DNA from: an uncultured Methanosarcinales archaeon
Lineage (GTDB): Archaea > Nanobdellota > Nanobdellia > Woesearchaeales > CAZXZL01
Assembly (NCBI GenBank): GCA_964645415.1
Contig: CAZXZL010000003.1
Location: 4,124-42,609, forward strand
Direction: 5' to 3'
DNA: 38,486 nucleotides
The translations under genes and the position numbers were made by a program. Below are positions 8,053 to 32,471 of the stretch, in pieces; within the stretch, counting starts at the first letter, position 1, and every line of letters begins with the position of its first letter. The notes under the pieces were generated by a model. It did no database searches. It worked only from the letters and a program-made list of their open reading frames with translations, and had not been told where the DNA came from.

Positions 8053-8055
8053 GGA

Positions 8056-8415: not shown

Positions 8416-8416
8416 A

Positions 8417-9387: not shown

Positions 9388-9951
9388 ATGACTTTTGCTG
9401 AAGCCTTTGAAACATTAATGACTGAGCATGGTGTTGCAATGTATGCTCTTCCTTTTATAATTATATTTACTATTGTTTTTGGTGTATTAGATAATTCTGG
9501 ACTTTTTTCAAAAAAAGATGGTAAAGATAATGTAAAAAAACCTAAATCAATTTATGTTGTTCTATCATTAATCTTTGCATTTGTAGGAACATATTTTATT
9601 AATGAATCTGGTGTTGCTGCCGGTTCAAGATTAGAATCTGCTTTGACTGGATCAATCCCAGTAGCAATTGTATTTATTATTGCTGTTTTATTTATAGTTA
9701 TTTTAGTTTCTTCTTTTGGTCTTGAAAAAAGCTGGTTAGAATTAGTTTTAGGTAAAGGTGATGATGGTCTTAAAATGAGTGGGATTTTTGTTTTAATATC
9801 TGTTTTATTAATTGTAGCTATATTTTTACATACTATTGGAATTTATTCATTTCCTCCTGCTTTAGGTTTTTTAAATACTGAACTAATCTCTTATTTAATT
9901 CCTATTTTAACTTTTGGAATTGTAGTTTGGTATGTTGTAAAAGAAGATTGA
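9388..9951 (+). CDS. Polytopic membrane protein, paralog 1 of 3 (unknown function)
   Basis: 187 aa. It shares architecture and local motifs with the next two ORFs: an N-terminal amphipathic segment, then a TM helix ending in ..Y/F-G/A-V-L, and a C-terminal TM helix ..P-I-x-x-F-G-x-V-x-x-Y/F-V-V followed by an acidic tail. GTGAT Shine-Dalgarno. Confidence 0.6.
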   Translation: MTFAEAFETLMTEHGVAMYALPFIIIFTIVFGVLDNSGLFSKKDGKDNVKKPKSIYVVLSLIFAFVGTYFINESGVAAGSRLESALTGSIPVAIVFIIAVLFIVILVSSFGLEKSWLELVLGKGDDGLKMSGIFVLISVLLIVAIFLHTIGIYSFPPALGFLNTELISYLIPILTFGIVVWYVVKED

Positions 9952-9984
9952 ATTTAATATTTTTTTAATAATTGGTGATAAAAA

Positions 9985-10578
9985 ATGTTTGAACAAATAT
10001 TCACAGAACTTGCAAATCAAGGAATCATTGATACAGCAATTCCAACTCTTTTAGTTTTTGCTCTTTTTTATGCAGTTCTTTATGAAACAGAAGTAATTTC
10101 AAAAAAGAAAGGAATTAATACAGTAATTTCATTTTCATTTGGTCTTTTATTTGCTTATTTTGGAAATCAAATTTATGTTGATTCAGGAATAACTTTAGTT
10201 CAATTAATAAATCACTCTATTTTAGATGTCACCATTATTATTTTAGCAGTTATCATGTTATTTGTATTATTAGGATCCATTGGTTATAATGGAGTTAATT
10301 TTGCAAATAGTAGTTATACTAAGTGGGGTTTTATCCTATTTTCATTATTTATTGTTGTATTTATTTTTATGCACACTGCAGGATTTTTACCAAGTAATAT
10401 TTCGAGTACTTTATCTAGTTATACTGAAAGTTTAAGCTTACTTGTTCCAATTGCAGTTTTTGGACTTGTTATTTACTTTGTTGTTAGTGAACCCGTTGAA
10501 GAAGATGATGATAAAGATAATGTTAAAGACAAAGCAAAAGAAATAATTAATGACATTGGTAAAGCTGTTGATAAATAA
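9985..10578 (+). CDS. Polytopic membrane protein, paralog 2 of 3 (unknown function)
   Basis: 197 aa with the same layout as 9388-9951. It has a GGTGAT Shine-Dalgarno and an acidic C-terminal tail (EEDDDKDNVKDK). Confidence 0.6.
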   Translation: MFEQIFTELANQGIIDTAIPTLLVFALFYAVLYETEVISKKKGINTVISFSFGLLFAYFGNQIYVDSGITLVQLINHSILDVTIIILAVIMLFVLLGSIGYNGVNFANSSYTKWGFILFSLFIVVFIFMHTAGFLPSNISSTLSSYTESLSLLVPIAVFGLVIYFVVSEPVEEDDDKDNVKDKAKEIINDIGKAVDK

Positions 10579-10608
10579 TTTATATAGAATAATTTTAATT
10601 TTTTTAAA

Positions 10609-11187
10609 ATGGCAACTTTATTAGATTTGGCTTTATTTGAATTCTTTGAACCTCTTTTCATATTTGTACTTATATATGCAATTCTTTATGGTGTTCTTAG
10701 TAAAATAAACATGTTTGGTGAAGATAGTTCATCTTTTAATGCTTTAATTTCTTTTGGAGTTTCTTTTCTTTTTATTTTATCTCCTAGTTTAAGAGAAGTA
10801 ATTTCTATTGCTCTTCCGTGGTATGCTCTTTTATTTGTCGTTTTAGGTTTTATCCTAATGTTCTTTTTATTTTTAGGTGTTGAAGATGATACTATTAAGA
10901 GTTTATTTTCTTCGAAAAAATATGGATTTGTTATATTTATTACGATTGTTATTTTTATTATAATATTTGTTTCTTCACTTATGGCAGTATATGGTGATGA
11001 TTTAAGAGATATGTCTGGAACCGATTACTCTGAAGACGATATCGAAGAAATTCCTGATGAAGCATATGCTGATAATATTGTTTTAACTTTAGTTCATCCA
11101 AAAGTTTTGGGAACATTATTTTTATTGGTATTTTCTGGTGCTGTTGTATTTTTACTTAGTTATTCTGAGTATGACATTTATGACTGA
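10609..11187 (+). CDS. Polytopic membrane protein, paralog 3 of 3 (unknown function)
   Basis: 192 aa with the same layout as the other two, plus an acidic loop (DYSEDDIEEIPDEAYAD). Confidence 0.6.
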   Translation: MATLLDLALFEFFEPLFIFVLIYAILYGVLSKINMFGEDSSSFNALISFGVSFLFILSPSLREVISIALPWYALLFVVLGFILMFFLFLGVEDDTIKSLFSSKKYGFVIFITIVIFIIIFVSSLMAVYGDDLRDMSGTDYSEDDIEEIPDEAYADNIVLTLVHPKVLGTLFLLVFSGAVVFLLSYSEYDIYD

Positions 11188-12551: not shown

Positions 12552-12595
12552 ATTTTATCATTTCAGATTTTTTTAGTTTTCAGAGAAAAAAAGAG

Positions 12596-12679
12596 CGCCC
12601 AGGAGGGGATTTGAACCCCCAAGCTCCGAAGAGCACTGGATCTCAAGTCCAGCGGAATACCAGGTTATCCGACCTAGGC
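12596..12679 (-). tRNA. tRNA-Ser (anticodon TGA), class II with a long variable arm
   Basis: Reverse-complement cloverleaf. Acceptor is GCCTAGG/CCTGGGC. Anticodon stem is CTGGA/TCCAG with loop CTTGAGA. Variable arm is GCTC-TTCG-GAGC. T arm is GGGGG-TTCAAAT-CCCCT. Discriminator is G. Confidence 0.85.
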
Positions 12680-13018: not shown

Positions 13019-13113
13019 ATAATCTTTTTATTATTAATATAAATATATTTTAGTATACAAAATAATATAATAGATTAGAAAAATATATAAATTAACAAAA
13101 AGGATATTTGATA

Positions 13114-16100
13114 ATGGTAGAGTATACTATAGCGCATGCTACAATAGCCCTGTTAATAATCGCAGTTGTAGGAGGAGTAGGATCCACAGTAATAACTGAT
13201 GCAGAAAGTGATATTCTTGGAATTTGGGGTGAAGATCAAGAAGAGGATGTAGGATTTGAGCCGTATGAACCTGAATTAACTCAAAGTGAAAATGTTGTAG
13301 TCGATAATGTAATGTATTTTAAAGAAGGTGTTGAAATTTTTGAAAGGATTTCTTCTGACATTGTAAGTAATGAAAATCAAGTTGATTCAATCACTGGTGC
13401 TGGTTTTAGTTCACCTGTTTCAACCCAAGATTTACCAAGTGATATAAATGGTTATACTATTTATGATTTAATTTCTGAAACCAAAAATTATTATTCTGAT
13501 ATTGAAGACCCTAATTATAAAGATATAAATAACCCTTGTACAGATTATCTTGACTCAGGAAATCCTTCTTTTAAATTATCTATAGATAATAGTGATGAAG
13601 AAAATAGTAATCAAGATACTTTGAATACATATTTTTGTGGTGCTTTTGAGTTAGATAATAAAGATGATTTTCCGGATTATATTAAATATGAAAAAGATGA
13701 TAATAAGTTAACAATCCCAGTTAGCCATAGTCCATTTTCAGAACTTTTCTTAAACTATCAAAATATATTACCTAATGAAGGGCCAAGAACAGATGCTGGT
13801 CAATGGAGTACTGGTGATATGAGTCATTTGTTTAGTGAATCTCCTTTAAATGAAATAAACTTAGTTTTTCAAGTAGAGGATTATAGTGGGGATATGACTC
13901 ATATTATTGTACCTTTTGATACTGACCCTGAAGACTTTGAATTTTTTTACTTTGAAGATACTGAGTTAGAGTATAGTATTGCCCCACTTGTATTTAATGG
14001 AGGTTTTACAATACCATACTTTTACTTACCTGAACCTTGTTATGATGGAGATGGTGAGTTTGAAGATGAATGTCTTGGACAATCAAGTGGTTTTTTGGGA
14101 AGTTTTAGAGATTATTTAAATCAAAATTATAACTATCCTTCTTATCTTTTTTATTATGATTCTTTTCCTGAATCTGAAGAAGCTCATTGGGATTTTGATG
14201 AAGGAACATCTTTTTTCTGGGATATTATGTTCTCAGATTTATCTTATATTTATGATTCTATTTCTTCTCTTTTTTTAACAGAGGATGATGAAAATTTTGA
14301 AACGGATGGTGATATTTTTAATCATTTAGATGAGTCATATCGTGAGGGTGGAATTTTATACATGATGGGTTACCATGGTAATACTTCTAGAATCGTTCTT
14401 AATTATATTTTAGAAATTACAAAAGATAATAAAAAAGACATGATGGAAGATTTTTTGAGAGGTGATATACACAATGCTTGGAATAATGCTCCAGATAGAA
14501 TCATGAAAAATTTATTTTTAGATTTCTTTACAATTGAAGAAGAAAATGAACTTAGAGATAATACAATTAGTATTATTGAACGTTCAGTTTATAGTGATTA
14601 CGTAGATAATGTTTTAATGTTGCTTGATATAGAACCAAAAGTTACAGGATTTAATAATCAAGTTTCTGATTTTTTAGACCAATCTGATTCAAAATATATT
14701 TTAGAAGATAAATTAATGGAAGAGTATAGCGAGTCAAAATCAAATTTTTATTTATCTACATTAGAACAAATGGGTTCTTCTAATTTCTTTGATGCTTTTT
14801 CATCAATTGATCATAAAATATTACTTTTAAAAAATTATGAAAATAAAAACTATAATAAAAAAGACTTTAATCTTAATAGTTATCTTAATGATTTATCAAG
14901 GACTAAATCTGATGATGTCATTGAAAGTACTTTAAAGTTTAGTAGTATTCCTATTAATGAAGATTTAGAAAATTTCATTAAAGAAGTCGGATTAGAACGG
15001 TTTCATTCTTCACTAGAAAATTATTTTTCTTCTGGAAATAACTGGGATGATTTTTTTAAATCTTTTACTGGAAAAAACTTTAACTCTTTTGATAATTTCA
15101 TATATCAATATCCTTATTCAGAGATTAGTAGTTTTTCCGAATCTGAATTAGCTAGTTTAGGAATTTTTTTCATTATTGGAACTGAAAAATATCAATATAA
15201 ATATTTTAGGGATTTCTTATATAACAATCAACTTGAAGAGGATTTATACCTTGCTTCTGCTCAAAGTGGAAACAATTATGCTTCTTTTGAGATTGATAGT
15301 CCTCTATTTATAGATAAAGGAGGTGAAAATGTACCACAAAATTTTCATCTTATTTCACCTTGTCTTACTAACATCGATTTAACTTATGATAAAACATATT
15401 ATGAAATTGGGTCAAATGTTATCTACTTTCATGATGGTGTTTTACGGTTAAGTGATTCTTTAGAATCTGAGATAAAAGAAGATCTTTTATGTGAAAAAGA
15501 ATTTATTTTTGACCCTTATTTTGATTTAGAAAAAGATGATAGAGATGATTTGAATAATTACTTATTTGATCAATACTTTAATGATGATAAAAATCTGTTT
15601 TTTGAAATGATCTTTGAGAGTGATTTCTTTGATAAAAATTCTATTTTTGAATTCTATGATAATTTATATGAAGAATGTTTAAATGATTTATATTGCCATT
15701 TCTTTTTAGATGCATATCATTTAGATGAGGTTGCTGGAGAGATTTTATTTCAATTTTTTTCAGGCTTCCATAATTTTGGTGACTCCTTTCAATTTTATCC
15801 TATTTTTGGAAATAAAACTGATGGTGTTTGGAACTTTAATTTTGAATCGACTTTTGATGAGGGGCATCATAGTTATAGTTCTGCTAAGGGGGACTTTTTT
15901 ATAACTTCTGATAATATTCCAGCTTTTTTATTTCCTATTGCTTTAAGACATCGTTACCCACAATCTGATAATTTAAATGATGCAATTGACTCTGCATTTA
16001 ATGAATTTAATAAACTAAAACAGATTGAGGGAGAATGTAGTGAAATTATTTCATTAGTTGATGAGTATTTTTATTATGATTTTTATACAAAAATTAGAGG

Positions 16101-19100
16101 AAAAACTAGCGTATATGATTACTATTATTCTTCGGGTTCTCATAATTTTATAGATTCAGAATATCCTGAAAATTCTTTTTATGATTATTTTTATGTTAAT
16201 GAGTATACCTCTTCTGAAATTAATGACTTTAATGAGATTCTTTCTGAAGACCATATTCAAAAGTGGTTAAATGATAGAATTGGAAAGTTTAAATATGATT
16301 CTACTAAAGAAAATTTTATGTGTATTGAATATGTTGAAGAGTATATTTCAAATAAAGTAGATAACATTTTAGAATTAAAAGAGAGTTCTTCTTGTAATGA
16401 AGAGGTTAATTTAAATACTGGAGAAAGTATATCCTCGAGAATATCTACTAGTGAACGTAATAATATTATTATGCCAAATGAACCTTGTTTTAATGATCTC
16501 TTTCATCTTGAAAATATATTAAGTACCTCTTATTTACCTTTTGTTATAGATTCTTTATACTACGGAAAATCAAATATTGATAAAAATAATAGATACAATG
16601 AATTTATTGAAGAATTAATTTTACCTACTGTTTATATTGATGAAATAAGAAGAAATCATCAATCGATTTCAACATCAGATGAGAATTACAAAGAAAAGAA
16701 TCCTGAACTTAATACATACTTAAAACCATTTTCCTTTTTCTTTCAATTTTTATATCAAGATGTTGATGATAATTTAATTGTTTCTGATTTAGATGATAAA
16801 ATAAATAATTTATGTTCTGTTCCAGGGAGTTGTAATTATGAAGAATTAGATTATTTGAATTTTTCTGAATTAATTCATGAAAATAGTGATAATTTTAATA
16901 CTTTTTATTCTCCTTTTAGAGATTTTTTATTAATCCCAGATGATTTTGAGAGATTTAATTTAGACTTTAGTGAATCTGATAGTTCTGATGAAATCTATTC
17001 TAACCTTGAAAATATGTTTTCTTCAAAAGGTACCATGTGGAAAGATGATTATTTTGATATGATTTCTTTTATTAATCAAAATACTGATGGTGATTCTAAT
17101 AATTTACTTTTTGATTTTTATGAACAATTATATTCTGATTGTCTTTCTAATTTAGAATGTTCAATGTTTTTAGAATATTATAATCTTGATGAAGTCGTTG
17201 GAGAAATTCTTTTTAGATATTTTTCTGATTATTATCGATTAAATGAGATGTTTATAAGCATTGGTAGTAGTAGTTATTGGGATAATAAAAAACTATTTGT
17301 TACAGAAAGGAACATACCTTCTTTTTTATTTCCTATTGGATTAATGTATCGTTATAATACTAAATCTCTTGATGATGCATTAGATTTAGCAATCAATGAA
17401 TTTGATAATGAGATAAGTTCTGATTTAAGTTGTAATCAAATTATAAATATGGTTGATGAATATCTTTATGTTGATTATTTTAATAACAGACATTCTAGTG
17501 AATCATATTATGATGTATTTACAAGGGAAGGGGCAGGAATCGGTGCAACTGGCGATACACTCCCTATTCATTTTTATCAATCATACTCTGAAAATGAACT
17601 ATTTGAAGATTTAGAGACTGTAGATGATTGGTTTGATTTATTAATTGATGATTTATTTAATGAGTCAAGACCTTTAATGTTTGATGACTTTTCTTGTCTT
17701 AAAGAAGTTGAATCTTATGTAAATGACACATTAAACAAAATTAATGATAAATTTGAATCGAGTTCATGTAATAGTGATTTATTGTTAAGCCATTATGAAA
17801 GTGAAAAAATTGATTCAGATAGTGAAAATTTACCTAATAATTATTGTTTAAAAGAAATTCATAAATTAGACAATTTTTTATCTTCTAAAGGTTTACCTGA
17901 AATGATTGATAAATTACATAAGGGTGAAACATTAACATTTAATCTTGGACAAAGAAAATCTGACTTGAAAGATATAATGGAGACTTCACTTTATGAAAGT
18001 ATGTCTGATAATTTAAAAGGAAACTTTTTAGTCCCTTTTAATATGTTTTTTAACTTTTTAGATAATAATCAAGATAAAAACTCTTTTATAGATAATTCTT
18101 GTTACTATCCTTCATCTGATAATCATAATGATTTATTCATTTCAATAATTAGTGAACATATTGAAAAAGAATGTGAAAATAATTTTAAACCAGAAAGTTT
18201 ATTTGATAGGATATACAGTCTTAATATTATAAATGAGAATCACTTTGATAAATCTTATTTATATGATTTATTTAGTGATTTTGATGGTGAGATATGTGAT
18301 ATTCCTAGTACTGGAGAGGATTTCTTAAAAGAGATACATCAAAAAATAAGTGATGATTATAATAGTTTACATACTGATTTTATAATTTGTGACTTTGACT
18401 ATTATAATTTTAATCATGATTTATCAAAACATTTTCAAAACTCATTTAATGATTACGAATCAAATTTTTATCTTGATATCCCTTATCTTTTCTTTTCATT
18501 TTTATATGATGAAGATGTTTTAGATATTGATGGTTTAAAAACTCATGATAAAATTCTTAGTAGGCTTTTTAATTATGACTCAAAATCAAATATTCGTGGA
18601 AGTGATTTATGTGAAGAGAATTTCTTGTATTGTTTTTTTAATGAAGAGTTATTTGGTTATTATTATAATTGTTCTGATTATTCTGTTTCAGATGTTTCTC
18701 AAGATAGATCGGACTTTGTTTCACCAAGTTATATTTTAAGTGAACAATTATTTGATCCCATATCTTATGATATTCCTCTTCAAAATGTAATAGGAAGATT
18801 ATCATCTTATGTTGATAGTGATGATGATTTAGATTTTGATCAAAATGAATTCTATGATATTTTTTACAAAGAAGAACAATTTTCAACGAAAAATAATATT
18901 TTAGCTGAATCTGACCATATGAATGGTTTTTGTTATGGTAATTCATTTGAATTAAGAAAATCAAATGTTATTTTAACACAACTTAGATCTCAACAAATTG
19001 CTTTAAACGTTATAAGTGGTGCAGTTGGTTTTAAAGTAGGTTATAAATTTGGAGGTTTTATTGGTGGAAAAGCTGGTGCTGTTGCAGGAACTGGTGTTTT

Positions 19101-19275
19101 ACCGGGTATTGGTACTGGTGTTGGAGGTGCTGCAGGAACAGGATTAGGTGGTGGTTTAGGTGGGGGTATAGGATCTTTTCTTTTTTCAAGATCAACAAAT
19201 TTAGTTTATGATTTTATTATTTATCATCATGAAAGAGATCGTCTATATTGGCCAGAATCAGGGGTGGCATCATAA
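13114..19275 (+). CDS. Giant (2,053 aa) highly acidic, D/N/F/Y/S-rich surface protein with an N-terminal hydrophobic anchor, an internal ~330-380-aa duplication and a C-terminal glycine-zipper segment
   Basis: Uninterrupted ORF. The track start 13108 is TTG and the first ATG is 13114. The N-terminus is MVEYTIAHATIALLIIAVVGGVG. Duplicated blocks are visible directly (see findings). The C-terminus is GGFIGGKAGAVAGTGVLPGIGTGVGGAAGTGLGGGLGGGIG. I recognise no catalytic motif. Confidence 0.85.
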   Translation: MVEYTIAHATIALLIIAVVGGVGSTVITDAESDILGIWGEDQEEDVGFEPYEPELTQSENVVVDNVMYFKEGVEIFERISSDIVSNENQVDSITGAGFSSPVSTQDLPSDINGYTIYDLISETKNYYSDIEDPNYKDINNPCTDYLDSGNPSFKLSIDNSDEENSNQDTLNTYFCGAFELDNKDDFPDYIKYEKDDNKLTIPVSHSPFSELFLNYQNILPNEGPRTDAGQWSTGDMSHLFSESPLNEINLVFQVEDYSGDMTHIIVPFDTDPEDFEFFYFEDTELEYSIAPLVFNGGFTIPYFYLPEPCYDGDGEFEDECLGQSSGFLGSFRDYLNQNYNYPSYLFYYDSFPESEEAHWDFDEGTSFFWDIMFSDLSYIYDSISSLFLTEDDENFETDGDIFNHLDESYREGGILYMMGYHGNTSRIVLNYILEITKDNKKDMMEDFLRGDIHNAWNNAPDRIMKNLFLDFFTIEEENELRDNTISIIERSVYSDYVDNVLMLLDIEPKVTGFNNQVSDFLDQSDSKYILEDKLMEEYSESKSNFYLSTLEQMGSSNFFDAFSSIDHKILLLKNYENKNYNKKDFNLNSYLNDLSRTKSDDVIESTLKFSSIPINEDLENFIKEVGLERFHSSLENYFSSGNNWDDFFKSFTGKNFNSFDNFIYQYPYSEISSFSESELASLGIFFIIGTEKYQYKYFRDFLYNNQLEEDLYLASAQSGNNYASFEIDSPLFIDKGGENVPQNFHLISPCLTNIDLTYDKTYYEIGSNVIYFHDGVLRLSDSLESEIKEDLLCEKEFIFDPYFDLEKDDRDDLNNYLFDQYFNDDKNLFFEMIFESDFFDKNSIFEFYDNLYEECLNDLYCHFFLDAYHLDEVAGEILFQFFSGFHNFGDSFQFYPIFGNKTDGVWNFNFESTFDEGHHSYSSAKGDFFITSDNIPAFLFPIALRHRYPQSDNLNDAIDSAFNEFNKLKQIEGECSEIISLVDEYFYYDFYTKIRGKTSVYDYYYSSGSHNFIDSEYPENSFYDYFYVNEYTSSEINDFNEILSEDHIQKWLNDRIGKFKYDSTKENFMCIEYVEEYISNKVDNILELKESSSCNEEVNLNTGESISSRISTSERNNIIMPNEPCFNDLFHLENILSTSYLPFVIDSLYYGKSNIDKNNRYNEFIEELILPTVYIDEIRRNHQSISTSDENYKEKNPELNTYLKPFSFFFQFLYQDVDDNLIVSDLDDKINNLCSVPGSCNYEELDYLNFSELIHENSDNFNTFYSPFRDFLLIPDDFERFNLDFSESDSSDEIYSNLENMFSSKGTMWKDDYFDMISFINQNTDGDSNNLLFDFYEQLYSDCLSNLECSMFLEYYNLDEVVGEILFRYFSDYYRLNEMFISIGSSSYWDNKKLFVTERNIPSFLFPIGLMYRYNTKSLDDALDLAINEFDNEISSDLSCNQIINMVDEYLYVDYFNNRHSSESYYDVFTREGAGIGATGDTLPIHFYQSYSENELFEDLETVDDWFDLLIDDLFNESRPLMFDDFSCLKEVESYVNDTLNKINDKFESSSCNSDLLLSHYESEKIDSDSENLPNNYCLKEIHKLDNFLSSKGLPEMIDKLHKGETLTFNLGQRKSDLKDIMETSLYESMSDNLKGNFLVPFNMFFNFLDNNQDKNSFIDNSCYYPSSDNHNDLFISIISEHIEKECENNFKPESLFDRIYSLNIINENHFDKSYLYDLFSDFDGEICDIPSTGEDFLKEIHQKISDDYNSLHTDFIICDFDYYNFNHDLSKHFQNSFNDYESNFYLDIPYLFFSFLYDEDVLDIDGLKTHDKILSRLFNYDSKSNIRGSDLCEENFLYCFFNEELFGYYYNCSDYSVSDVSQDRSDFVSPSYILSEQLFDPISYDIPLQNVIGRLSSYVDSDDDLDFDQNEFYDIFYKEEQFSTKNNILAESDHMNGFCYGNSFELRKSNVILTQLRSQQIALNVISGAVGFKVGYKFGGFIGGKAGAVAGTGVLPGIGTGVGGAAGTGLGGGLGGGIGSFLFSRSTNLVYDFIIYHHERDRLYWPESGVAS

Positions 19276-19388
19276 TGGATGAAGATACAACAAAAATACC
19301 TTTTGTATTAATAATAGTAATAACTTTAATGCTACTAGGATTTATTTTAATGTCAGTTATAATCACAAATATTTTAACTGCTAACTAA
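19275..19388 (+). CDS. 37-aa single-TM micro-protein (below the ORF-track cutoff)
   Basis: I translated this myself: MDEDTTKIPFVLIIVITLMLLGFILMSVIITNILTAN. Its ATG overlaps the giant gene stop (TAATG at 19273-19277), which suggests translational coupling. Confidence 0.5.
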   Translation: MDEDTTKIPFVLIIVITLMLLGFILMSVIITNILTAN

Positions 19389-19413
19389 GTTTTAAAATAA
19401 AAAGATAAATAAA

Positions 19414-20274
19414 ATGGTTTATGATAATAAAAAGGGAATGCCTGCAGTTTTAGTTTCAATTATTCTAATGACTATTGTTTTTTTAATTTTATTATCTCTT
19501 GCAGGAGAGATTATGACTTTAGTTGTATCTGGAACTGATGATTTACGTTGTACTTGGAGTGCTGTTTTACATTCACATACATCAACTTTTTTTATGGGTG
19601 ATGGATTTGAACTAGATTGTAAAATAGATACTATTTTTATTAGTCTACAAAGAGACAATGATGAAAACCCTACAGATATTACTTTTCGTCAGGATGGTAA
19701 TGACCAGAGTATAGGTGTTCCTCAAAGATATCTCAATGCTGTTGAATCATGGAATCAAAACTCTTATGGAGAAGGTTTTTCATTTAATAATCCAAGCCAT
19801 AGGATTAGATATTTTTATGATACAAAAATTTCTCGTGAAATGATTGATTGTAAACAAAAGTTAGGAGATGGAAATATTGAACTTTTTGGTAATGATCCTA
19901 GTGGAAATACTTGTGTTATTTGTACTCGTTTTGTAATCCCAAATGAAAATGATTTAAATTATTTAAAACATATAACTCAAGGTGAATTAGTGGGTGAATT
20001 TTTAAGATCAAATCCTTATTCTTTTACTGATATTGACCATCAAAAATCATTGTGGGAAAAAATTAGATTTGAAGGACAAAGTGACCTTTTTGATACTATT
20101 GGTTATGATATGGATGAAAATCTTCTTATTGTTTATTCTGTATCAAGTGGTGGCCCTCTTGAGAGTATTCCTGTTATTGGACATTTATTTAGTGAAGATG
20201 ATAATGTAGGTCATAATATTTTTTTAACAACACCTGATGATTTAAGTAATTATTGTGATACTGTTGCAAACTGA
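19414..20274 (+). CDS. Pilin-like N-terminus protein (class III signal peptide-like), orphan globular domain
   Basis: 286 aa. The N-terminus MVYDNKKG-MPAVLVSIILMTIVFLILL has a basic patch, a small residue and about 20 hydrophobic residues. Six Cys are present. Confidence 0.6.
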   Translation: MVYDNKKGMPAVLVSIILMTIVFLILLSLAGEIMTLVVSGTDDLRCTWSAVLHSHTSTFFMGDGFELDCKIDTIFISLQRDNDENPTDITFRQDGNDQSIGVPQRYLNAVESWNQNSYGEGFSFNNPSHRIRYFYDTKISREMIDCKQKLGDGNIELFGNDPSGNTCVICTRFVIPNENDLNYLKHITQGELVGEFLRSNPYSFTDIDHQKSLWEKIRFEGQSDLFDTIGYDMDENLLIVYSVSSGGPLESIPVIGHLFSEDDNVGHNIFLTTPDDLSNYCDTVAN

Positions 20275-20281
20275 GGTTAAA

Positions 20282-20425
20282 ATGTTAAATAAAAAATCAA
20301 TGGAATTTTCGTATCTTGCTGGATTTTTACTAGCATTACTTTTTTTATTTTTATTAATACTTTTTATTGGAAATATGGCTTCTGAAAGTTTTGGAGTTAT
20401 TTCCTTTCTTGAAAGTGTTTTTTAA
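20282..20425 (+). CDS. 47-aa micro-protein with a pilin-like N-terminus (below the ORF-track cutoff)
   Basis: I translated this myself: MLNKKSMEFSYLAGFLLALLFLFLLILFIGNMASESFGVISFLESVF. A GAGG site lies 5 nt upstream of the ATG, and the gene fills the gap between two operon genes. Confidence 0.45.
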   Translation: MLNKKSMEFSYLAGFLLALLFLFLLILFIGNMASESFGVISFLESVF

Positions 20426-20433
20426 GAGGTGAT
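20426..20433 (+). promoter_or_regulatory. Shine-Dalgarno site (GAGGTGAT)
   Basis: It lies 3 nt upstream of ATG 20437. The same GGTGA/GAGGTGA core recurs upstream of ATGs at 9985, 11714, 12165, 27108(-), 29029, 30617, 31890, 32749, 33665 and 37377. Confidence 0.6.
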
Positions 20434-20436
20434 AAT

Positions 20437-20721
20437 ATGGAAGGTAGAGTTTTAGTTGGACTTATAATTGTGCTTTTATTAATTGTAGTTTTAATGCCGA
20501 TTTTTAGTGGAACAATTATTGATTCTTTTCAAGGGATGATGAGTGATAGAGAGGATGCAATAGGTGGTGCTTCAGGAGAAAAATGTGTTAGTAGTGTTAC
20601 TCCAAATAATATTTGTGAAGAGGAATACCAAAGACTTGATTATTATGAACAAGTAACTTATGAAATTGTTGCAGGAGACTATGAAGATTGTGAAGGTCAT
20701 TGTTATAGGCCAGTTTCTTAA
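20437..20721 (+). CDS. Small secreted or anchored protein (N-terminal TM, Cys-containing acidic domain)
   Basis: 94 aa. MEGRVLVGLIIVLLLIVVLMPIF is followed by an acidic domain with 4 Cys. A strong Shine-Dalgarno site precedes it. Confidence 0.6.
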   Translation: MEGRVLVGLIIVLLLIVVLMPIFSGTIIDSFQGMMSDREDAIGGASGEKCVSSVTPNNICEEEYQRLDYYEQVTYEIVAGDYEDCEGHCYRPVS

Positions 20722-20723
20722 GA

Positions 20724-21227
20724 ATGAAAAAAGCAGAAATGACTATGAGGGAATTAGTAGAGTTGATTATTGTAGCGATGGCTATTTTATTTGTATTTTT
20801 ACCAATTACTATGAGTATTTATCAATCTTTTTTTGTATCAGAATATCCTCTTTTAAATAATAGAATTGAAGATTTAAAATATACTCTTGAATCAACTCAC
20901 TCTTTTGATGATGATTTTAATATTAAATTTAGTTTTCCTTCTTATGATGAACTTGAAGGAGCTTTTGATGGTTTATTGAATTTTTTTGAGAATGATAATT
21001 ATTATAATATTTATTTTAAAAGTGATTCTCGTTTGAGTGAAATTTGTTATTCTGTTGATAATAATAGATACTGTAAAGATGTTAATTCTGATATACAATT
21101 TTATAAAAACGGAGAGAGATGTGAAGATTACTGTGTTGAAAATATTTATCGAGATAGTGAGGGAATAAGAAATTTAGAAATTTCATTTAATAGAGACTAT
21201 TTTGAAATTGAAGGGGTGGTATATTGA
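20724..21227 (+). CDS. Pilin-like N-terminus protein
   Basis: 167 aa. The N-terminus is MKKAEMTMRELVELIIVAMAILFVFL. The start lies 3 nt after the upstream stop. Confidence 0.6.
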   Translation: MKKAEMTMRELVELIIVAMAILFVFLPITMSIYQSFFVSEYPLLNNRIEDLKYTLESTHSFDDDFNIKFSFPSYDELEGAFDGLLNFFENDNYYNIYFKSDSRLSEICYSVDNNRYCKDVNSDIQFYKNGERCEDYCVENIYRDSEGIRNLEISFNRDYFEIEGVVY

Positions 21228-22114
21228 ATAAGAAAACTCAAAGTGACTTTTTAATACTTACTAAAGAATTATTTCAAATATTGCTTGTAGCAGGACCTAT
21301 ACTTATTCCTTTATTAAGTTATATTTCTATGATGAGCAGTAGTGAAGATTTTAATGATATATTATTATCTAAAGAAATGAAAATAACTTTGAATTCTATT
21401 GCTGGTATTGATTATCCTTCAGAATCTTATTTAGTTTCAGATGTTGGTTCTAGAATGATTGATATAAGTTCTGATTCTTTTTATATAAGTTCTGATGGTA
21501 GACACGATAAACAAATTAATTCAAAACTTTATCCCACATATTCTACTAGTTTTCAAGATACTAATATGTATACAACTTTTTCTACATTAGTCTCTTTTGA
21601 AAGAGATGATTCAATTGTAGGTTTTAGACGTTTTAGAGATTCATCATTAAAAGTTCATGTTCCGGATATTGAAACTTCAAATTATTTTTGGGATAAGAAA
21701 ACAATTTGTTTTAAAACAGATGATAATAGTTTAAGAAACTATATTGAAAGAGAGATTAGGGAATTGAATTCATATTTTGATATGCCTGGTTGTGATTTAA
21801 GTAACACTTTTGTTTATTCAGATGGTTTTAGGTCTTGTAATGTAACAATTCATTTAGAATCATCTAATAAAGAAAATCATGTATCTTTTCAATATTCTTC
21901 AAGAGAAAAAAATAAACTTTTTGCATTATTATTTAATGAAATGGTTTATGGCTTTGAAATTTATGATTATTCTATGAAATCAGGAGATTATAATTTAATT
22001 AAATTCAATTTTGATGAAAATGATTTGTTATATCGTTATTTACATGATGCTTTTTTAAATTTTTATGGCGAAATTAATTGTGATGAGAGGGAAAGATTAG
22101 ATGAGATTAAATAA
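21224..22114 (+). CDS. Pilin-like N-terminus protein
   Basis: 296 aa. A TTG start overlaps the upstream stop by 4 nt. The N-terminus is (M)NKKTQSDFLILTKELFQILLVAGPILIPLL. Confidence 0.5.
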   Translation: MNKKTQSDFLILTKELFQILLVAGPILIPLLSYISMMSSSEDFNDILLSKEMKITLNSIAGIDYPSESYLVSDVGSRMIDISSDSFYISSDGRHDKQINSKLYPTYSTSFQDTNMYTTFSTLVSFERDDSIVGFRRFRDSSLKVHVPDIETSNYFWDKKTICFKTDDNSLRNYIEREIRELNSYFDMPGCDLSNTFVYSDGFRSCNVTIHLESSNKENHVSFQYSSREKNKLFALLFNEMVYGFEIYDYSMKSGDYNLIKFNFDENDLLYRYLHDAFLNFYGEINCDERERLDEIK

Positions 22115-22577
22115 AAAATCAGAAGTTGGTGATTTAATTTTAAATTTATTTAGAGTCATACCGGTCATAATTATAATGACTTTTGTGTTAAATTTATTTT
22201 ATGGAAGACTTCCAGAAGTTCTTGAAAATTATAATGAGATTGATTTTTATTATTTAGGTAAAAGAATTTTAACAACTGATATAACAACTTCTGATTTTGG
22301 TGTTATTGATATAGATAAGATTACTGAAGAAAATATAAGAAATTTATTTATCACAGATGAGTTTGGTGCATGTTATAATATAACTTATCTTAAGGGAGGG
22401 GGTTATGAAAATGAGTATATGTGTTCTTCAGAGATTCATTCCTCTTTTTATTTACAATTTCAAGAATTTTCTAACCTTCGAGATAGTTATGAATATTCAT
22501 ATTTTGGTGTAGTTGAAACAGATAATTTAAAATCACCTGCTAATATAGATGTTATATTTTTTGATAAAAATGTTTGA
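22101..22577 (+). CDS. Pilin-like N-terminus protein
   Basis: 158 aa. The N-terminus is MRLNKKSEVGDLILNLFRVIPVIIIMTFVL. It overlaps the upstream gene by 14 nt. Confidence 0.55.
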   Translation: MRLNKKSEVGDLILNLFRVIPVIIIMTFVLNLFYGRLPEVLENYNEIDFYYLGKRILTTDITTSDFGVIDIDKITEENIRNLFITDEFGACYNITYLKGGGYENEYMCSSEIHSSFYLQFQEFSNLRDSYEYSYFGVVETDNLKSPANIDVIFFDKNV

Positions 22578-23106
22578 TTTTTTTAATAATAAAAAAGGAT
22601 TACTTGGAGATATCATCCTTATTTCATTACTACTTGTAACTGTAACAACTTTCTATTTTATTTTTTCAAGTGTTATTGAAAGTGATATAATTGAGTCTGA
22701 TCTTCATCTTCATGAAAATAATGCTTATGTGATTCCTTCTGTACTTTTAAGAAGTCAAGTTATGTGCTCAGGAGGAATTACAAATTATATCCAAATGAAG
22801 GAGTTTTGTAATGAAGAAGAAATTGAAGAACACATCGAAGATTTATTTAACTTATTTGATTTATCAGGTTTAGTTTATTTTCAACCCGATTCACAGTATG
22901 AAAGATGGTGTTTTCAAATTGAAAAAAGTCTTGATGTTCTAGCTAGACATTCTTCAGATATTTGTGAGAGAGAACAATATGGTTCTGATCCTAATTTTAT
23001 TTATCGTGATGGTGAATTAGATGTGGATTATGATGGAAGTAGTGATAATATTAGGTATCATTTTTATATTGGTGATGAAAGTTATGGATTTTATTTTATA
23101 TTGTAA
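22570..23106 (+). CDS. Pilin-like N-terminus protein
   Basis: The track ORF starts at 22549. I prefer ATG 22570 (MFDFFNNKKGLLGDIILISLLLVTVTTFYFIF), which overlaps the upstream stop by 8 nt. Confidence 0.55.
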   Translation: MFDFFNNKKGLLGDIILISLLLVTVTTFYFIFSSVIESDIIESDLHLHENNAYVIPSVLLRSQVMCSGGITNYIQMKEFCNEEEIEEHIEDLFNLFDLSGLVYFQPDSQYERWCFQIEKSLDVLARHSSDICEREQYGSDPNFIYRDGELDVDYDGSSDNIRYHFYIGDESYGFYFIL

Positions 23107-23163
23107 TTATTAAAAATAGATTTATTTAATTTGAATTGTTTATTTTAAATTTTAGTGGTTTAA

Positions 23164-25617
23164 ATGGTTTTTAAAAATAAAGTTGGCTTATCTTATAGTA
23201 TCTTACTTTTTGGAGTAAGTGTTTTAGTTTTTATCTCTGCTTTAATGGTGGGACAATCTAATTTAATGGATGCTGTAGATGTATATGCTCCTAACTCATC
23301 AATAGATATATTTAAATTATCATATTTATCTGATTCACTTAACCAATATTATAATGTAAAATCCGAAAATATTCTTAATAAACATTTAGATAACTTTCCG
23401 AAAGGAGAATTTGGATTTTATTTAATTAATAGTAAAAGTAAAGATAGATATTTGTTTAATCTTGAAGAGAGTCTTTATGATATTTATCCTATTAATTTAG
23501 AAGATAGTTCAGTAAATGTACTTATGAGTGAAGATCCTGAAATATATTCTACTTTTTCTGATCTTTCTGTTAGCACTTCAATATTTACTTCAAATTATGT
23601 TAATTACCGTTTATCTGAGAGAACTCTTAAAACAGGAGGTAATAATGTTTGTGATATCTCTTCTGATTTTAATTTTAATGAATTCTCAAATTGTAATCAT
23701 ATTTTTGAATCAGTATATGATATAACATCTGATCCAGAATTATCTCTTTTATTTACTGCTATATCTTATTTAGATACTAATTGTGATAATAGACCTTCTT
23801 TTGATGTTTTAAGATCAATTAGACGTGATGAACCTTCTTATTATATAGAAAATACAGATACTTTAATTGGTCGTATATTAAATCTTTATGAAGATGTTCA
23901 ACAATTAGATTTACAAAAATATGATGAAAGATTTTTATTTCTCTATTTACATCATAGAGGAGGTTATGATGAAATAAAAGAATTCCTTAATCGTGGCTAT
24001 CCTTATCAAGAAGCTATTTCAAGACATTGCTTTTCTTTCTTTTCTAATTATTGGACAGATGTTTTTGAAGATTTAGATGAAAATATTAAATCTTCTTATT
24101 TATATAAACAAGAAGAATATTTTTGTCGTGGTCGTGATATTGGAATGAACTATCCAAATACTGTTCTTCAAGTTTATAATAAAATGTGTGATGATGCGGG
24201 ATTTGAACTTGTTGAAGATGAAATCGAACATAAATTTTCTCCTGCGCAATTACATCGTTTATTTGATCAAAATGTTGATATATTTAGACCAATCATCCCA
24301 TTTTCTTTAGAGTTATATCAAGATGATATTTTAAAAAATTGTTTTTTCTCTCATGAAAATATATCTAACTGTTTAAATAAAAAATTAGAATCAAAAATTA
24401 ATGATAAAAATGAAATGATTGAAGAAGAATTTGATTTAATTGATCAAGGTTCTAATTATGATGACTTTAAAATTTCTCTTTTAGAGAGTAATAAAGTAGA
24501 TAATTTTATGGATTTTGCTTATCAACACTCAAAAATTGAAAGATGTATTACTATTAAAAATAAATTAAATGAAATTGATTATAGTTTAAACTCTGATGGT
24601 TGCTTATGTTTAAATTTAGGTGATGATATTTCGATTTCAGGTGAATATTTAGAATATAATGATTATGATTGGAATCTTCCATTGAGTGATTATGTTGGAC
24701 ATGGAGAGAGTATTTCTATTGAATTTAATAACATAGATGAAGAGTTTTTTCTCTCGACATCTTCTTTAGAAAATAATTGTGATTTCTATACAGACAATTT
24801 AAATCCAAAATTTTATCCCGCCCATTTTTCTGACTCTGAATTAGATTTTTTTGGTGTTTTAGAAATTGATAATGTAAATAGTAGGCAAATTGGATTTGAT
24901 AATTTTGATGCAAATATTTATCAACCAGATTATCCTTCTGAAGAATTTTTTGTAAGTTGGAATGATATTTCTAATGAATTATTTGGCTTGATGGGTTATG
25001 AATTAAGAATTTACTCTTATGATCCTTTAGAAGGAAGAGTTTCAAATACTTCTTCAAATTATTTTTTAAATCAAGATGATTCTTTTGAATTTGAGTATAA
25101 CTTTTCAGTTTCTGAAGAATTAGATAAACCTTTTGTTGATGGAAGTTCTTTTACTGTTAATATTTATACCAAAGATTGGTATGGTAATAAAAGAGAAGTT
25201 TTTTCAGAATATTTTGAATTTGAAGATGACTTACCTTTTGATTTTGCTAACTTATATGATGGTGATTCAATTTGTGATGGTTTAAGTAAAATTGAATCAA
25301 GTGATGAAGGAGAAATTGAGTTAAATTGGGATTTTAATAATTATTTAATGGATGGGACAGATATAACTAAAGACGCTTATGAAAACTATATTAAAAGACA
25401 TTTCAGTCATTATTTAGTTGGTTACAAAGAGTTTAGTGAAGAAGATTATGATGGAGTTAGTATTGATGAGTTTGATACAATAAAAGTGGATGATAGAAAC
25501 CTTTTATTAGATGACCTATCGAACCAAACAGATTATTCTGTATTTGTTCAACAAATTGATGTTTCAGAAAATTCAATTGATTATCTTTGTGATTATTCTG
25601 CATATGAAAGTATTTAA
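23164..25617 (+). CDS. Large (817 aa) surface protein with a pilin-like N-terminus and probable C-terminal beta-sandwich (FN3-like) repeats
   Basis: The N-terminus is MVFKNKVGLSYSILLFGVSVLVFISALMV. The C-terminal ~230 aa show two segments with an FN3-like pattern (..FFVSWNDIS..YELRIYSYD..FTVNIYTKDWYGN.. and ..IELNWDF..YLVGYKE..YSVFVQQIDVSEN). This domain call is pattern-based only. Confidence 0.6.
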   Translation: MVFKNKVGLSYSILLFGVSVLVFISALMVGQSNLMDAVDVYAPNSSIDIFKLSYLSDSLNQYYNVKSENILNKHLDNFPKGEFGFYLINSKSKDRYLFNLEESLYDIYPINLEDSSVNVLMSEDPEIYSTFSDLSVSTSIFTSNYVNYRLSERTLKTGGNNVCDISSDFNFNEFSNCNHIFESVYDITSDPELSLLFTAISYLDTNCDNRPSFDVLRSIRRDEPSYYIENTDTLIGRILNLYEDVQQLDLQKYDERFLFLYLHHRGGYDEIKEFLNRGYPYQEAISRHCFSFFSNYWTDVFEDLDENIKSSYLYKQEEYFCRGRDIGMNYPNTVLQVYNKMCDDAGFELVEDEIEHKFSPAQLHRLFDQNVDIFRPIIPFSLELYQDDILKNCFFSHENISNCLNKKLESKINDKNEMIEEEFDLIDQGSNYDDFKISLLESNKVDNFMDFAYQHSKIERCITIKNKLNEIDYSLNSDGCLCLNLGDDISISGEYLEYNDYDWNLPLSDYVGHGESISIEFNNIDEEFFLSTSSLENNCDFYTDNLNPKFYPAHFSDSELDFFGVLEIDNVNSRQIGFDNFDANIYQPDYPSEEFFVSWNDISNELFGLMGYELRIYSYDPLEGRVSNTSSNYFLNQDDSFEFEYNFSVSEELDKPFVDGSSFTVNIYTKDWYGNKREVFSEYFEFEDDLPFDFANLYDGDSICDGLSKIESSDEGEIELNWDFNNYLMDGTDITKDAYENYIKRHFSHYLVGYKEFSEEDYDGVSIDEFDTIKVDDRNLLLDDLSNQTDYSVFVQQIDVSENSIDYLCDYSAYESI

Positions 25618-25631: not shown

Positions 25632-26099
25632 TTAATTAGAAAAACACTCATCTATATTTAAAGAGTAGCTATATTTTTGACTTTGACATCGATATATTTC
25701 ATTTTCGTATTCAACATATGGAATAATTTCAACTTCCTCTATGTTTCTAATTCTCTCTCTATTAAATGCTACTTCTAACTCTTGTGATTCACCAATTTTT
25801 AGATTTTCATCAACAACTATTGATTGTGTATCACTATAACTATTTATATTTACTAATAATTCATCAAATTTTTTACTTCCATCATTAACCATTTCAAATA
25901 GTAAATGATTATCTTTAGTTATACAAAACTCATTTTCTTCTCTAAATGGAGTTCTAGTGTCTAATGATATTCTATTACATTTTCTAACAACTTCTGAAGA
26001 AATATCGTTTACTCTTTCTTCCCTAAATGCGGGAAATATAAAAAAAACTGCTAATAAAGTTGCAATTGCAATTATTAAAAAAACATCTACTTTACTCAT
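25632..26099 (-). CDS. Small N-terminally anchored protein (unknown function)
   Basis: 155 aa. The N-terminus is MSKVDVFLIIAIATLLAVFFIF. Its start overlaps the stop of the upstream RPA-like gene by 8 nt. Confidence 0.55.
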   Translation of the reverse strand: MSKVDVFLIIAIATLLAVFFIFPAFREERVNDISSEVVRKCNRISLDTRTPFREENEFCITKDNHLLFEMVNDGSKKFDELLVNINSYSDTQSIVVDENLKIGESQELEVAFNRERIRNIEEVEIIPYVEYENEIYRCQSQKYSYSLNIDECFSN

Positions 26100-28989: not shown

Positions 28990-29028
28990 ATGTTATAAGA
29001 AAACTTTATATTAATATTGGTGAGCCTT

Positions 29029-29547
29029 ATGTTTAAAAAATCTCAGATCCATACTGAAGTCTTTGTCTATATCTTGGCCCTTGTTATTGTCAGTTTTATC
29101 GTAGTATATGGATATAGTGCTGCAAGAGACTTTCAAGAAACAACTCATCAAGTTAATTTATTAACATTTAAAACAGAACTAGAAGGACAATTATCTTCTT
29201 ATGTTGGTGACCTTGGTTCTAGACGTAATAAAGAAGTTCGTGTTCCACAAGGTTTTGATGAGGTTTGTTTTGTTGATTTAACGATGGACTTTGAGGATTA
29301 TGAAAATCAAGATGATCTTTGGGAAGGTTTGGCCAATGATTATCCTCTAATATTTACTTCTTGGATGAATCAAGTTTCAGGAAATATTTTTCTTTTAAGA
29401 GGTGGAGTTCCAGAATTTATTCTTTACGTTCCCGATATGGAACTTGAATCAGAGAGGGTTTTTATATGTGAGGAGATTCTTGGTAGAAATTTAGAGTATT
29501 CTTTTAGAGGTAAAGGGGGTTCTGTTGAGGTTACAGGTATTAACTAA
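29029..29547 (+). CDS. Pilin-like N-terminus protein (minor-pilin candidate)
   Basis: The track start 29017 is TTG. I prefer ATG 29029, with GGTGA at 29019-29023. The N-terminus is MFKKSQIHTEVFVYILALVIVSFIVVYGY. Confidence 0.6.
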   Translation: MFKKSQIHTEVFVYILALVIVSFIVVYGYSAARDFQETTHQVNLLTFKTELEGQLSSYVGDLGSRRNKEVRVPQGFDEVCFVDLTMDFEDYENQDDLWEGLANDYPLIFTSWMNQVSGNIFLLRGGVPEFILYVPDMELESERVFICEEILGRNLEYSFRGKGGSVEVTGIN

Positions 29548-29549
29548 TA

Positions 29550-31544: not shown

Positions 31545-31592
31545 TAATTGATGCGAAATCTTTTTATATTATAATTATTGTTTTAGGTACAT

Positions 31593-31862: not shown

Positions 31863-31889
31863 TTATAATTAATTTTGAGGTGTATAATA

Positions 31890-32156: not shown

Positions 32157-32189
32157 TAAAATTTAACTTTTTTATAATTTAATTTGAAA

Positions 32190-32453: not shown

Positions 32454-32471
32454 TTTTTTTAGTTGATATTT

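Follow-up and report, generated by a model that had tools for sequence, protein, structure and literature searches.

A ten-gene operon for the probable accessory pilins and surface proteins of a type IV filament in a DPANN archaeon

Introduction

Archaeal type IV pilus loci typically contain at least five minor pilins together with large adhesin-like or S-layer-like proteins, have many conserved cysteines and evolve extremely fast (PMC4858521). Loci of the kind termed system 2 combine ATPases with a long N-terminus and a single platform gene with pilins that do or do not carry a class III motif, with membrane proteins and with large adhesin-like proteins (bioRxiv 10.64898/2026.04.22.720090). 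Structures resembling pili have been put forward as mediators of the contact that DPANN archaea make with hosts (PMC6642349), and surface and pilus genes are those that diversify fastest in populations of Nanoarchaeota (PMC6142677). Here we describe a block of ten genes, g1 to g10, that occupies positions 13114-25617 on the plus strand of a 38,486-nucleotide (nt) stretch of DNA, which in its full length is called the window. The source is a DPANN archaeon, Candidatus Woesearchaeota, and a protein annotated as such falls into the 90%-identity cluster of the window's ATPase; the contig is also present in an ENA and a Logan assembly. The window has a GC content of about 26%, and its archaeal content is seen in Hjc, a FlaI-type ATPase and PTH2. 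The original prediction, made from the sequence alone, had presented the block as a candidate for an undescribed surface or host-contact apparatus. Our analysis points instead to a set of accessory pilins that belongs to a type IV filament system, and for archaea the general plan of such systems is known (PMC4858521; bioRxiv 10.64898/2026.04.22.720090).

Comparison with described systems

The window resembles the euryarchaeal clade 2 or system 2 pili, such as those of Haloferax volcanii with PilB3-C3 and PilA (Makarova et al. 2016 and the 2026 type IV filament (TFF) preprint), in many respects. It likewise has an ATPase with a long N-terminus (776 amino acids, aa) and one large platform gene, it encodes pilin-like proteins with and without a class III signal, accessory membrane proteins and large adhesin-like proteins, and these evolve fast and contain many cysteines. 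However, the products of the window have no detectable match to PilA/DUF1628-type or any other pilin family in Pfam or NCBIfam, the pilin genes are divided between two clusters that lie 6 kb and 22 kb from the machine, and the signature family, that of g3, is unannotated.

The Epd operon of Methanococcus maripaludis comprises 11 genes on one transcript, which encode minor pilins, a dedicated peptidase and large DUF2341 adhesin-like proteins. Here too a long operon joins minor-pilin-like genes with large putative adhesins while the major pilin is encoded elsewhere, and for Epd a role in adhesion is known. The two operons are not homologous, however; the Epd locus has two platform genes and a peptidase of its own, and g1 has neither DUF2341 nor any other recognisable domain. 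In the minor-pilin complexes of bacteria (FimU-PilVWXE with PilY1, GspH-I-J-K, and PilB/PilC of Streptococcus sanguinis) low-abundance pilins that are bulky or modular are encoded together with a large non-pilin partner, and the complexes are proposed to prime assembly and to present a tip adhesin. The window is archaeal and shares with them neither sequence nor fold similarity nor the PilY1 beta-propeller, and the analogy is one of function only. The SPEARE proteins of nanohaloarchaea (PMC6642349) are likewise very large, variable, membrane-anchored and mostly extracytoplasmic DPANN proteins for which host interaction has been proposed, but they carry recognisable protease, laminin-G/adhesion and restriction-enzyme domains, whereas g1 has none of these and sits in a pilin operon.

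Homology to the Epd, Aap, Ups or S-layer systems, which the original prediction had named as evidence that would speak against it, was not found in Pfam and NCBIfam at E values up to 1. No operon product matched EpdA-E, AapA/B, UpsA/B, sugar-binding proteins or archaellins in these searches, and g1 and g10 had no Pfam match to PilY1 or DUF2341 adhesin domains. S-layer families gave no Pfam or NCBIfam match either; the anchor of g1 is N-terminal and its N-X-S/T sequons are fourfold depleted, whereas archaeal S-layer proteins are defined by recognisable S-layer domains, an anchor at the C-terminus and, usually, N-glycosylation sequons. No homology to SPEARE or bindosome components was found among the operon products.

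Organisation and conservation of the operon

Ten successive plus-strand open reading frames (ORFs) had been claimed for this block, and all of them are present (Table 1). The junctions from g1 to g10 measure, in order, -1, 25, 7, 11, 2, -4, -14, -8 and 57 nt, in agreement with the predicted TAATG at 19275 and the predicted overlaps of 4, 14 and 8 nt; the gap before 20724, given as 3 nt, is in fact 2 nt. Two related contigs, L004 (same sample) and L005 (a different run), have an identical gene order, both micro-ORFs (g2 and g4) included, and the orthologous proteins are 32-72% identical overall. Because their orthologues are conserved at 66-72%, g2 and g4 can be taken as real genes. The overlaps of 4 and 8 nt are the same in all three genomes; for the third one, the window and L004 have 14 nt and L005 has 20 nt. 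The gaps of 25 and 57 nt shrink in the relatives to 6 nt and to 8 or -8 nt, respectively, so that no room is left there for internal promoters.

The spacer upstream of g1 is about 430 nt long in all three genomes and only its last ~66 nt can be aligned (window 13051-13116, L004 ~2665-2730, L005 ~3333-3398). The TATA-box-like element in this stretch is a candidate for the operon promoter, and its distance from the ATG suggests an mRNA that is leaderless or has a very short leader. A Shine-Dalgarno-like GGTG or GAGG precedes g2, g4, g5, g7 and g8 (background 9%), e.g. GGGGTGG at -14 to -8 of g2, GAGGT at -9 of g4 and a strong GAGGTGA before g5. The earlier claim that the genes form one unit is in line with these data, as a conserved promoter-like element occurs only before g1, the junctions are tight in three genomes, and a tRNA gene and a convergent gene delimit the block. 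A scan for sigma-70 promoters and intrinsic terminators, which are not relevant to archaea, showed no enrichment.

Each of the ten products has exactly one strongly hydrophobic segment, located at the N-terminus (hydropathy scan), and none was assigned to a family in Pfam, NCBIfam or PHROGs scans. The designation of g1 as an acidic giant is correct as far as its isoelectric point (pI) of 4.1 is concerned, but acidity is not special to this protein: the pI is 4.1-4.8 for all ten products, other exported proteins of the window are alike, and the cytoplasmic ones, as opposed to these, are mostly basic.

Pilin-like N-termini

The motif K-K-[G/A/S/T] stands directly before the hydrophobic helix in seven products, g3, g4 and g6 to g10 (the junctions, from KKG/M in g3 to KVG/L in g10, are marked by a slash in Table 1). 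The prepilin-like architecture that had been claimed for at least six products is therefore there, and the count becomes seven once the 47-aa g4 is included. In the orthologues the small residue is either kept or swapped only among G, A and T, e.g. the N-terminus of g7 reads KKG/QGDF and KRA/QGDF in the relatives, and that of g10 FNKKG/ISYS. The helix is also present in g1, g2 and g5, but these lack the small residue; in g2 it is missing after the basic patch.

A relaxed class III detector applied to all 133 window ORFs of at least 35 aa gave 15 matches, 12 of which fall into the operon or into a second pilin cluster, d1-d8; two others are spurious ORFs and one is an MscS-like gene. The strict FlaFind pattern, [KRDE][GA][ALIFQMVED][ILMVTAS]x3, gave a divided answer to the check that had been proposed with the prediction, since g6 (KAEMTM) fits and the other six motif-bearing products fail. 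Note that clusters that are homologous to the operon and adjoin Peptidase_A24 genes also fail the strict pattern, and for this reason it may be too narrow for the lineage.

The g3 family and the pilus loci of other genomes

The link between the operon and a FlaI/FlaJ motor, which had been claimed from their proximity, is borne out by g3, a family embedded in loci with FlaI, FlaJ and prepilin peptidase genes on dozens of metagenomic contigs. A flanking-gene scan led to a distant Woesearchaeota contig, L003, where eight pilin-like genes come after a FlaJ gene and one of the eight can be aligned to g3; a single distant locus was obtained with the RPA-like flanking gene, and its sequence lay on the wrong side of that gene. 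A profile search found 23 family members, none of which has a Pfam match. They share a class-III-like N-terminus and invariant cysteines within C..SVL...PL.CK, DCW.MMGEGK.D.F and TCVICSR. The g3 protein of the window belongs to this family with a hidden Markov model (HMM) E value of 3e-57, and its profile-profile comparison (hhalign) gives a probability of 96%, or 94% when the first 40 residues are left out.

A metagenome scan with a narrower g3 alignment gave 170 loci; 80 of these were kept, and the neighbourhoods were analysed in the 28 loci of at least 12 kb. A FlaJ-like platform gene lies within 10 kb of the g3-like gene in 26 of the 28 loci and a FlaI-like ATPase gene in 16, while a Peptidase_A24 homologue is found 4-5.5 kb downstream of the g3-like gene in 23. 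Among the loci without the peptidase, L013, L035 and L073 have just ~3-4 kb of sequence downstream of the g3-like gene, and L054 and L085 show no Peptidase_A24 match despite ~8-10 kb. Each of the 28 loci contains 6-13 class-III-like ORFs on the same strand.

A common layout was apparent in four distant loci: genes for a 757-aa T2SSE ATPase and a platform protein of 708-732 aa are followed by the pilin-like cluster. In the latter, a micro-pilin of ~50 aa, a pilin-like protein of 250-390 aa and a micro-pilin of 36-44 aa precede the g3-like gene, and 5-7 more genes come after it, whose products all begin with K[KR][GA]. A Peptidase_A24 gene closes the cluster in L006 (14622-15488), L009 and L010, and none is present in the gene tables of L007 and L008. 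The machine that stands beside the g3-like genes in L006-L009 aligns with that of the window over the full length, with 46-47% identity for the ATPase and 35-37% for the platform protein, and homologues of three further membrane proteins of the window (u187, u197 and u192) are found next to FlaI in L006, L013, L025, L032 and L088. As the g3-family loci share their layout, and the machine and u-proteins of the window are homologous to theirs, the operon can be identified as the pilin cluster of this system, and we infer that the machine at 2645-7177 is cognate to it. The operon appears to be a copy of the pilin cluster from a Woesearchaeota and Pacearchaeota type IV filament system that has been rearranged and expanded and is detached from the machine and the peptidase.

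The structure of g3 was modelled with AlphaFold2 (AF2) from the 23-sequence alignment (pLDDT 72.7, pTM 0.72), and the model consists of a helix at residues 9-39 and a mixed alpha/beta head. A Foldseek search of the model against PDB and BFVD gave no fold match, to known pilins or adhesins or to anything else (best E ~0.5), and a PDB sequence search with the g3 and g7 profiles gave no match.

The distant members of the family (P0008-P0025) have a second hydrophobic segment, rich in Gly and Ala, and a C-terminal domain that contains cysteines (CG...GCS...C); judging from the alignment, the g3 proteins of the window clade appear to have lost both. The related loci (L006-L009, L013-L089) also contain two families of micro-pilins that consist of little more than a class III leader and one helix. 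Members of famA (~50 aa, ending in ...AIEYLKNL.RFGK) are located at the start of the cluster, e.g. L009 8655-8813, and members of famM (36-44 aa) directly upstream of the g3-like gene, e.g. L009 9739-9849. The g4 protein matches the famA HMM with an E value of 1e-5 (4e-7 and 2e-6 for its orthologues), and g2 occupies the position of famM, directly upstream of the g3-like gene.

The remaining operon products

When every g and d product was compared by tblastn with ~85 loci of the system, only g3 and the three u-proteins gave matches. The profile-profile comparison of g5-g10 and d1-d4 with the positional families of the distant loci revealed N-terminal similarity only. The N-terminal segment of g6 matches positional family D (hhalign 79%, E 1.5e-5) and the match is lost without the first 40 aa; the match of g9 to families E and F is likewise lost without the N-terminal 40 residues. 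In addition, g9 is 24% identical over its full length to the product of L003 8614-9132 (E 0.03), and g8 has a weak BLASTP match to that of L006 11755-12180 (E 1.8e-4). A scan of metagenome contigs (JGI) with the alignment of g7, the best-conserved product in our ranking (57-59% identity), found no relatives. The 817-aa g10 had no match in a PDB sequence search, and its AF2 model, which was made without an alignment, was discarded (pLDDT 31). The g10 protein is a candidate for a large-headed pilin or an adhesin.

Sequon avoidance

The number of N-X-S/T sequons in the operon products was compared with the number expected from shuffled sequences. There are 6 sequons in g1 where 24 are expected (P < 0.001), and its orthologues contain 6 versus 12.6 (L004) and 6 versus 11.1 (L005). 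The same tendency holds for g3 with its orthologues (0 observed, 9.8 expected), for g6, g8 and g9 with theirs (3 versus 15.7), for g7 with its orthologues (4 versus 8.5) and for g10 (5 versus 9.3). Control motifs, namely the reverse [ST]-X-N, D-X-[ST], N-[ST] and N-X-X-[ST], are not depleted. Nor are the sequons themselves in the cytoplasmic proteins of the window (20 versus 22.7), in the products of the d-cluster (10 versus 9.3) and in a Kazal-like secreted protein (3 versus 2.6). The avoidance extends to the distant loci, where 19 members of the g3 family have 9 sequons versus 35.6 expected and the cluster proteins of L003 and L006-L009 have 22 versus 53.8. The simplest reading is that the operon products face the N-glycosylation machinery on the outer side of the membrane and may have been selected to stay unglycosylated; sequon avoidance thus gives independent support for their export.

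The 2,053-aa protein g1

The first gene of the operon encodes a protein with a hydrophobic helix at aa 1-31, which carries no K-K-[GAS] motif, and its commonest residues are S, D, L, F, N, E, I and Y. The orthologues in L004 and L005 are much shorter (1,195 and 1,205 aa). A full HMMER search with aa 791-1950 against 1.84 billion representatives recovered g1 itself and the 1,195-aa orthologue only; aa 1-790 were covered only by Pfam, NCBIfam, PHROGs and a word index of low sensitivity. With g1 or g10 as query, the word index returned the query alone, which is a weak negative, as the tool also missed the orthologues that are 32-35% identical. No Pfam, NCBIfam or PDB sequence match was found for g1, and it contains neither DUF2341 nor a PilY1 beta-propeller.

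Two internal repeat copies are 28-37% identical to each other, with E values down to 4e-33, and a single copy is found in the orthologues of the relatives; the comparison indicates that g1 has grown by internal duplication. Towards the C-terminus there is a glycine-rich segment that is dense in GxxxG and has a Gly/Ala-rich counterpart in the orthologues; residues 1978-2029 match weakly a PHROG of unknown function. A C-terminal transmembrane anchor was considered and rejected, as the segment stays below the Kyte-Doolittle hydropathy threshold. A relation between the C-terminus of g1 and g3, indicated by a weak BLAST match, was also dismissed, as the g3 HMM does not support it.

The other loci seldom contain an ORF of 900 aa or more, so that the giant g1 and g10, with its 817 aa, appear to be additions of this clade. 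Large surface proteins nevertheless recur near the system without being homologous to g1: in L008 (10550-15519) a protein that exceeds 2,864 aa and has faint Pfam matches to Ig-like/fn3 domains is encoded ~5 kb downstream of the pilin cluster.

Machine, second pilin cluster and neighbouring genes

The ATPase of the window scores far below the equivalog cut-offs of both FlaI and BasE. The three u-proteins, the homologues of which accompany FlaI in other loci, are probably uncharacterised parts of the pilus machine. The second pilin cluster is composed of d1-d4 and the tandem mini-pilins d5-d8 (KKGQ/GLSMN...), which are 39-72% identical to each other; none of the eight matches a pilin family of Pfam or NCBIfam. 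In their N-terminal segment, d5-d8 match the pilin that comes last in the distant clusters (hhalign 93%), and this similarity is gone when the N-terminal 40 residues are removed. The mini-pilins d5-d8 are likely candidates for the major pilins.

The FlaJ-like gene is followed after 2 nt by a gene for a SpoIIM-like membrane protein and then, with gaps of 1-3 nt, by genes for PTH2 and a rhomboid protease (7180-9307). Two overlapping genes for coiled-coil proteins of 161 and 146 aa (11242-12142) are situated between the u-paralogues and Hjc, and a coiled-coil protein is encoded in the equivalent place in L003 (2433-2903); we speculate that these proteins may assist the pilus system as an accessory in the cytoplasm. 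Near the start of the window (199-1020) a very acidic, Cys-rich protein of 273 aa is encoded, with an N-terminal anchor and two copies of ...Y.PVCGVDGNTYGNDC.A... Its Pfam matches to Kazal/Pacifastin are weak; a domain like a Kazal-type protease inhibitor is unusual in an archaeon.

Table 1. Features of the window. The slash marks the junction after the small residue of the class-III-like motif; identities are those to the orthologues in L004 and L005.
Feature	Position	Strand	Description	Identity
FlaI-like ATPase	2645..4975	+	776 aa; T2SSE and FlaI family matches	
FlaJ/TadC-like platform protein	4979..7177	+	732 aa	
u187, u197, u192	9388..11187	+	three polytopic membrane paralogues of 187, 197 and 192 aa without a Pfam family	
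tRNA-Ser	12595..12679	-	left boundary of the transcription unit; ARAGORN	
Upstream motif TAGTATACA	13051..13059	+	contains the palindrome GTATAC; possible regulator site; within the alignable ~66 nt of window, L004 and L005	
TATA-box-like element TATATAAAT	13084..13092	+	22-30 nt before the ATG of g1; kept in all three upstream regions; candidate promoter	
g1	13114..19275	+	2,053 aa; acidic (pI 4.1); candidate surface/contact protein; clade-restricted	32-35%
g1 repeat copy A	15637..16893	+	aa 842-1260; chunked self-BLASTP	
g1 repeat copy B	17101..18180	+	aa 1330-1689; chunked self-BLASTP	
g1 C-terminal Gly-rich segment	19009..19206	+	~aa 1966-2031; 25% Gly; GxxxG-dense, glycine-zipper-like	
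g2	19275..19388	+	37 aa; single-helix membrane micro-protein; TAATG overlap with g1	66% (L004); uncalled copy in L005
g3	19414..20274	+	286 aa; pilin-like; MVYDNKKG/MPAV...	50-52%
g4	20282..20425	+	47 aa; 'micro-pilin'; MLNKKS/MEFSYLAGFLL...	66-72%
g5	20437..20721	+	94 aa; Cys-containing; N-terminal anchor without class III motif	59-63%
g6	20724..21227	+	167 aa; pilin-like; MKKA/EMTMRELVELI...	37-42%
g7	21224..22114	+	296 aa; pilin-like; TTG start; MNKKT/QSDF...	57-59%
g8	22101..22577	+	158 aa; pilin-like; MRLNKKS/EVGD...	52-54%
g9	22570..23106	+	178 aa; pilin-like; MFDFFNNKKG/LLGD...	43-44%
g10	23164..25617	+	817 aa; pilin-like; MVFKNKVG/LSYS...	50-56%; orthologues cut by contig ends
Convergent protein	25632..26099	-	155 aa; N-terminal anchor; right boundary of the unit	
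Second pilin cluster, d1-d8	29017..32723	+	d1-d4 159-355 aa; d5-d8 86-93 aa	

Interpretation and alternative explanations

We consider it probable (about 0.72) that the block is an operon for the accessory pilins and surface proteins of a type IV filament system. A number of observations weigh against this reading. Neither the window (tblastn E > 4) nor the 10 kb upstream of FlaI was found to contain a Peptidase_A24 homologue, and 6 kb of DNA with housekeeping genes separate the operon from the genes for the ATPase and the platform protein. Outside g6, which alone fits the strict FlaFind pattern, the positions +1 to +4 are unusually polar. The modelled head of g3 resembles no solved pilin, though the N-terminal helix is present, and the head of g3 is the only one for which homology to pilin-like genes in the distant loci can be detected, those of g5-g10 having none; for g6, g9 and d5-d8 the similarity to the distant clusters is confined to the N-terminal segment. 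Finally, the position of the products at the tip or at the base and the role of an adhesin are argued by analogy only.

Several of these points would also suit another explanation, namely that the products are type II signal-anchor proteins that build or decorate the cell envelope, with g1 as an S-layer-like or matrix protein and K-K-[GAS] as a positive-inside flank. A single N-terminal hydrophobic segment is all that any of the ten products has, the small residue is missing from g1, g2 and g5, six of the seven motif-bearing products fail strict FlaFind, and neither the window nor the 10 kb upstream of FlaI has yielded a prepilin peptidase; moreover, large S-layer-like proteins are recorded in type IV pilus loci (Makarova et al., PMC4858521). 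However, a mere charge flank does not fit well with a small residue that the orthologues conserve or exchange only within a small set, with homologous g3-containing clusters that end with Peptidase_A24 in 23 of 28 loci, and with N-terminal segments that resemble those of the mini-pilins in profile comparisons. N-glycosylation is usual for archaeal S-layer proteins, whereas g1 avoids sequons, and on balance we regard the envelope explanation as improbable. The class III substrate architecture and the type of machine are also those of the bacterial type II secretion pseudopili and of the Sulfolobus bindosome, and the operon might then provide a short piston, or a platform of the bindosome type, to export g1 or to position binding proteins that take up nutrients or DNA from the host. 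The weak match of the ATPase to the bindosome protein BasE and the many small subunits and micro-pilins are in keeping with such a device, but no product contains a substrate-binding-protein, nuclease or transporter domain (Pfam, NCBIfam) and the four tandem mini-pilin genes d5-d8 suggest a real shaft; the present data do not separate secretion from adhesion, and we consider a pseudopilus very unlikely. We give hardly any credence to the idea that the operon is the cargo of a mobile element or provirus, integrated beside tRNA-Ser with surface or entry proteins of its own. It is true that the operon adjoins a tRNA gene, that its flanking genes differ between the window, L004 and L005 and that its contents are orphan-like. 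The idea was rejected nonetheless, as the operons in L004 and L005 have no adjoining tRNA and there are no meaningful PHROG matches; furthermore, genes for an integrase, a capsid, a terminase or replication are absent, the neighbouring genes have a GC content and GC skew that the operon continues, and in many genomes g3 belongs to the core of a chromosomal pilus locus.

If the operon does encode accessory pilins, as we prefer to think, the following mechanism can be envisaged. The seven pilin-like products would insert into the membrane and be trimmed by a class III signal peptidase of the Peptidase_A24 type, encoded elsewhere in the genome, and the FlaI/FlaJ machine would lift the subunits into a filament with a shaft of the mini-pilins d5-d8. 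Their bulky heads would restrict g3, g7 and g10 to the tip or to an initiation complex, in analogy to the bacterial minor pilins with PilY1 or to GspH-K. Having no cleavage motif, g1 would stay anchored in the membrane or travel as a non-pilin partner, and its fast divergence and domain duplication would fit a direct contact with a variable external partner, e.g. the surface of a host cell. Tip, adhesin and host-contact roles of the operon would be plausible. The more specific proposal that it forms a tip adhesin for host attachment seems to us possible, with the odds somewhat against it. A still bolder version is that the operon is a dedicated and fast-diversifying host-recognition tip organelle of this DPANN group, in which the seven minor pilins, helix-only micro-pilins included, would present g1, the subunits would be kept free of glycans for bare-protein contacts, and the glycine-zipper-like segment of g1 would insert into the membrane of the partner and open a cell-cell connection of the kind that DPANN symbionts presumably require; this version is highly speculative and in our opinion unlikely.

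Conclusions

Several features seem not to have been described before, namely the status of the g3 family as hallmark of the system, the micro-pilins made of a helix only, the avoidance of sequons and the giant orphan g1 of this clade. The organism is uncultivated, and the significance of these findings is at the level of candidate knowledge. The ways in which DPANN archaea find, bind and exploit their hosts are largely unknown, and type IV pili are the leading suspects. In this respect, the g3 family marks a pilus system that is widespread in Woesearchaeota and Pacearchaeota, and it indicates that the 'hypothetical' genes surrounding it are subunits of that system. Sequon avoidance, which is seen in the operon subunits and not in the mini-pilins, could help to predict those archaeal surface proteins that must stay unglycosylated. 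As the most variable parts of the system, g1 and the 817-aa g10 would be the best candidates for determining partner specificity.

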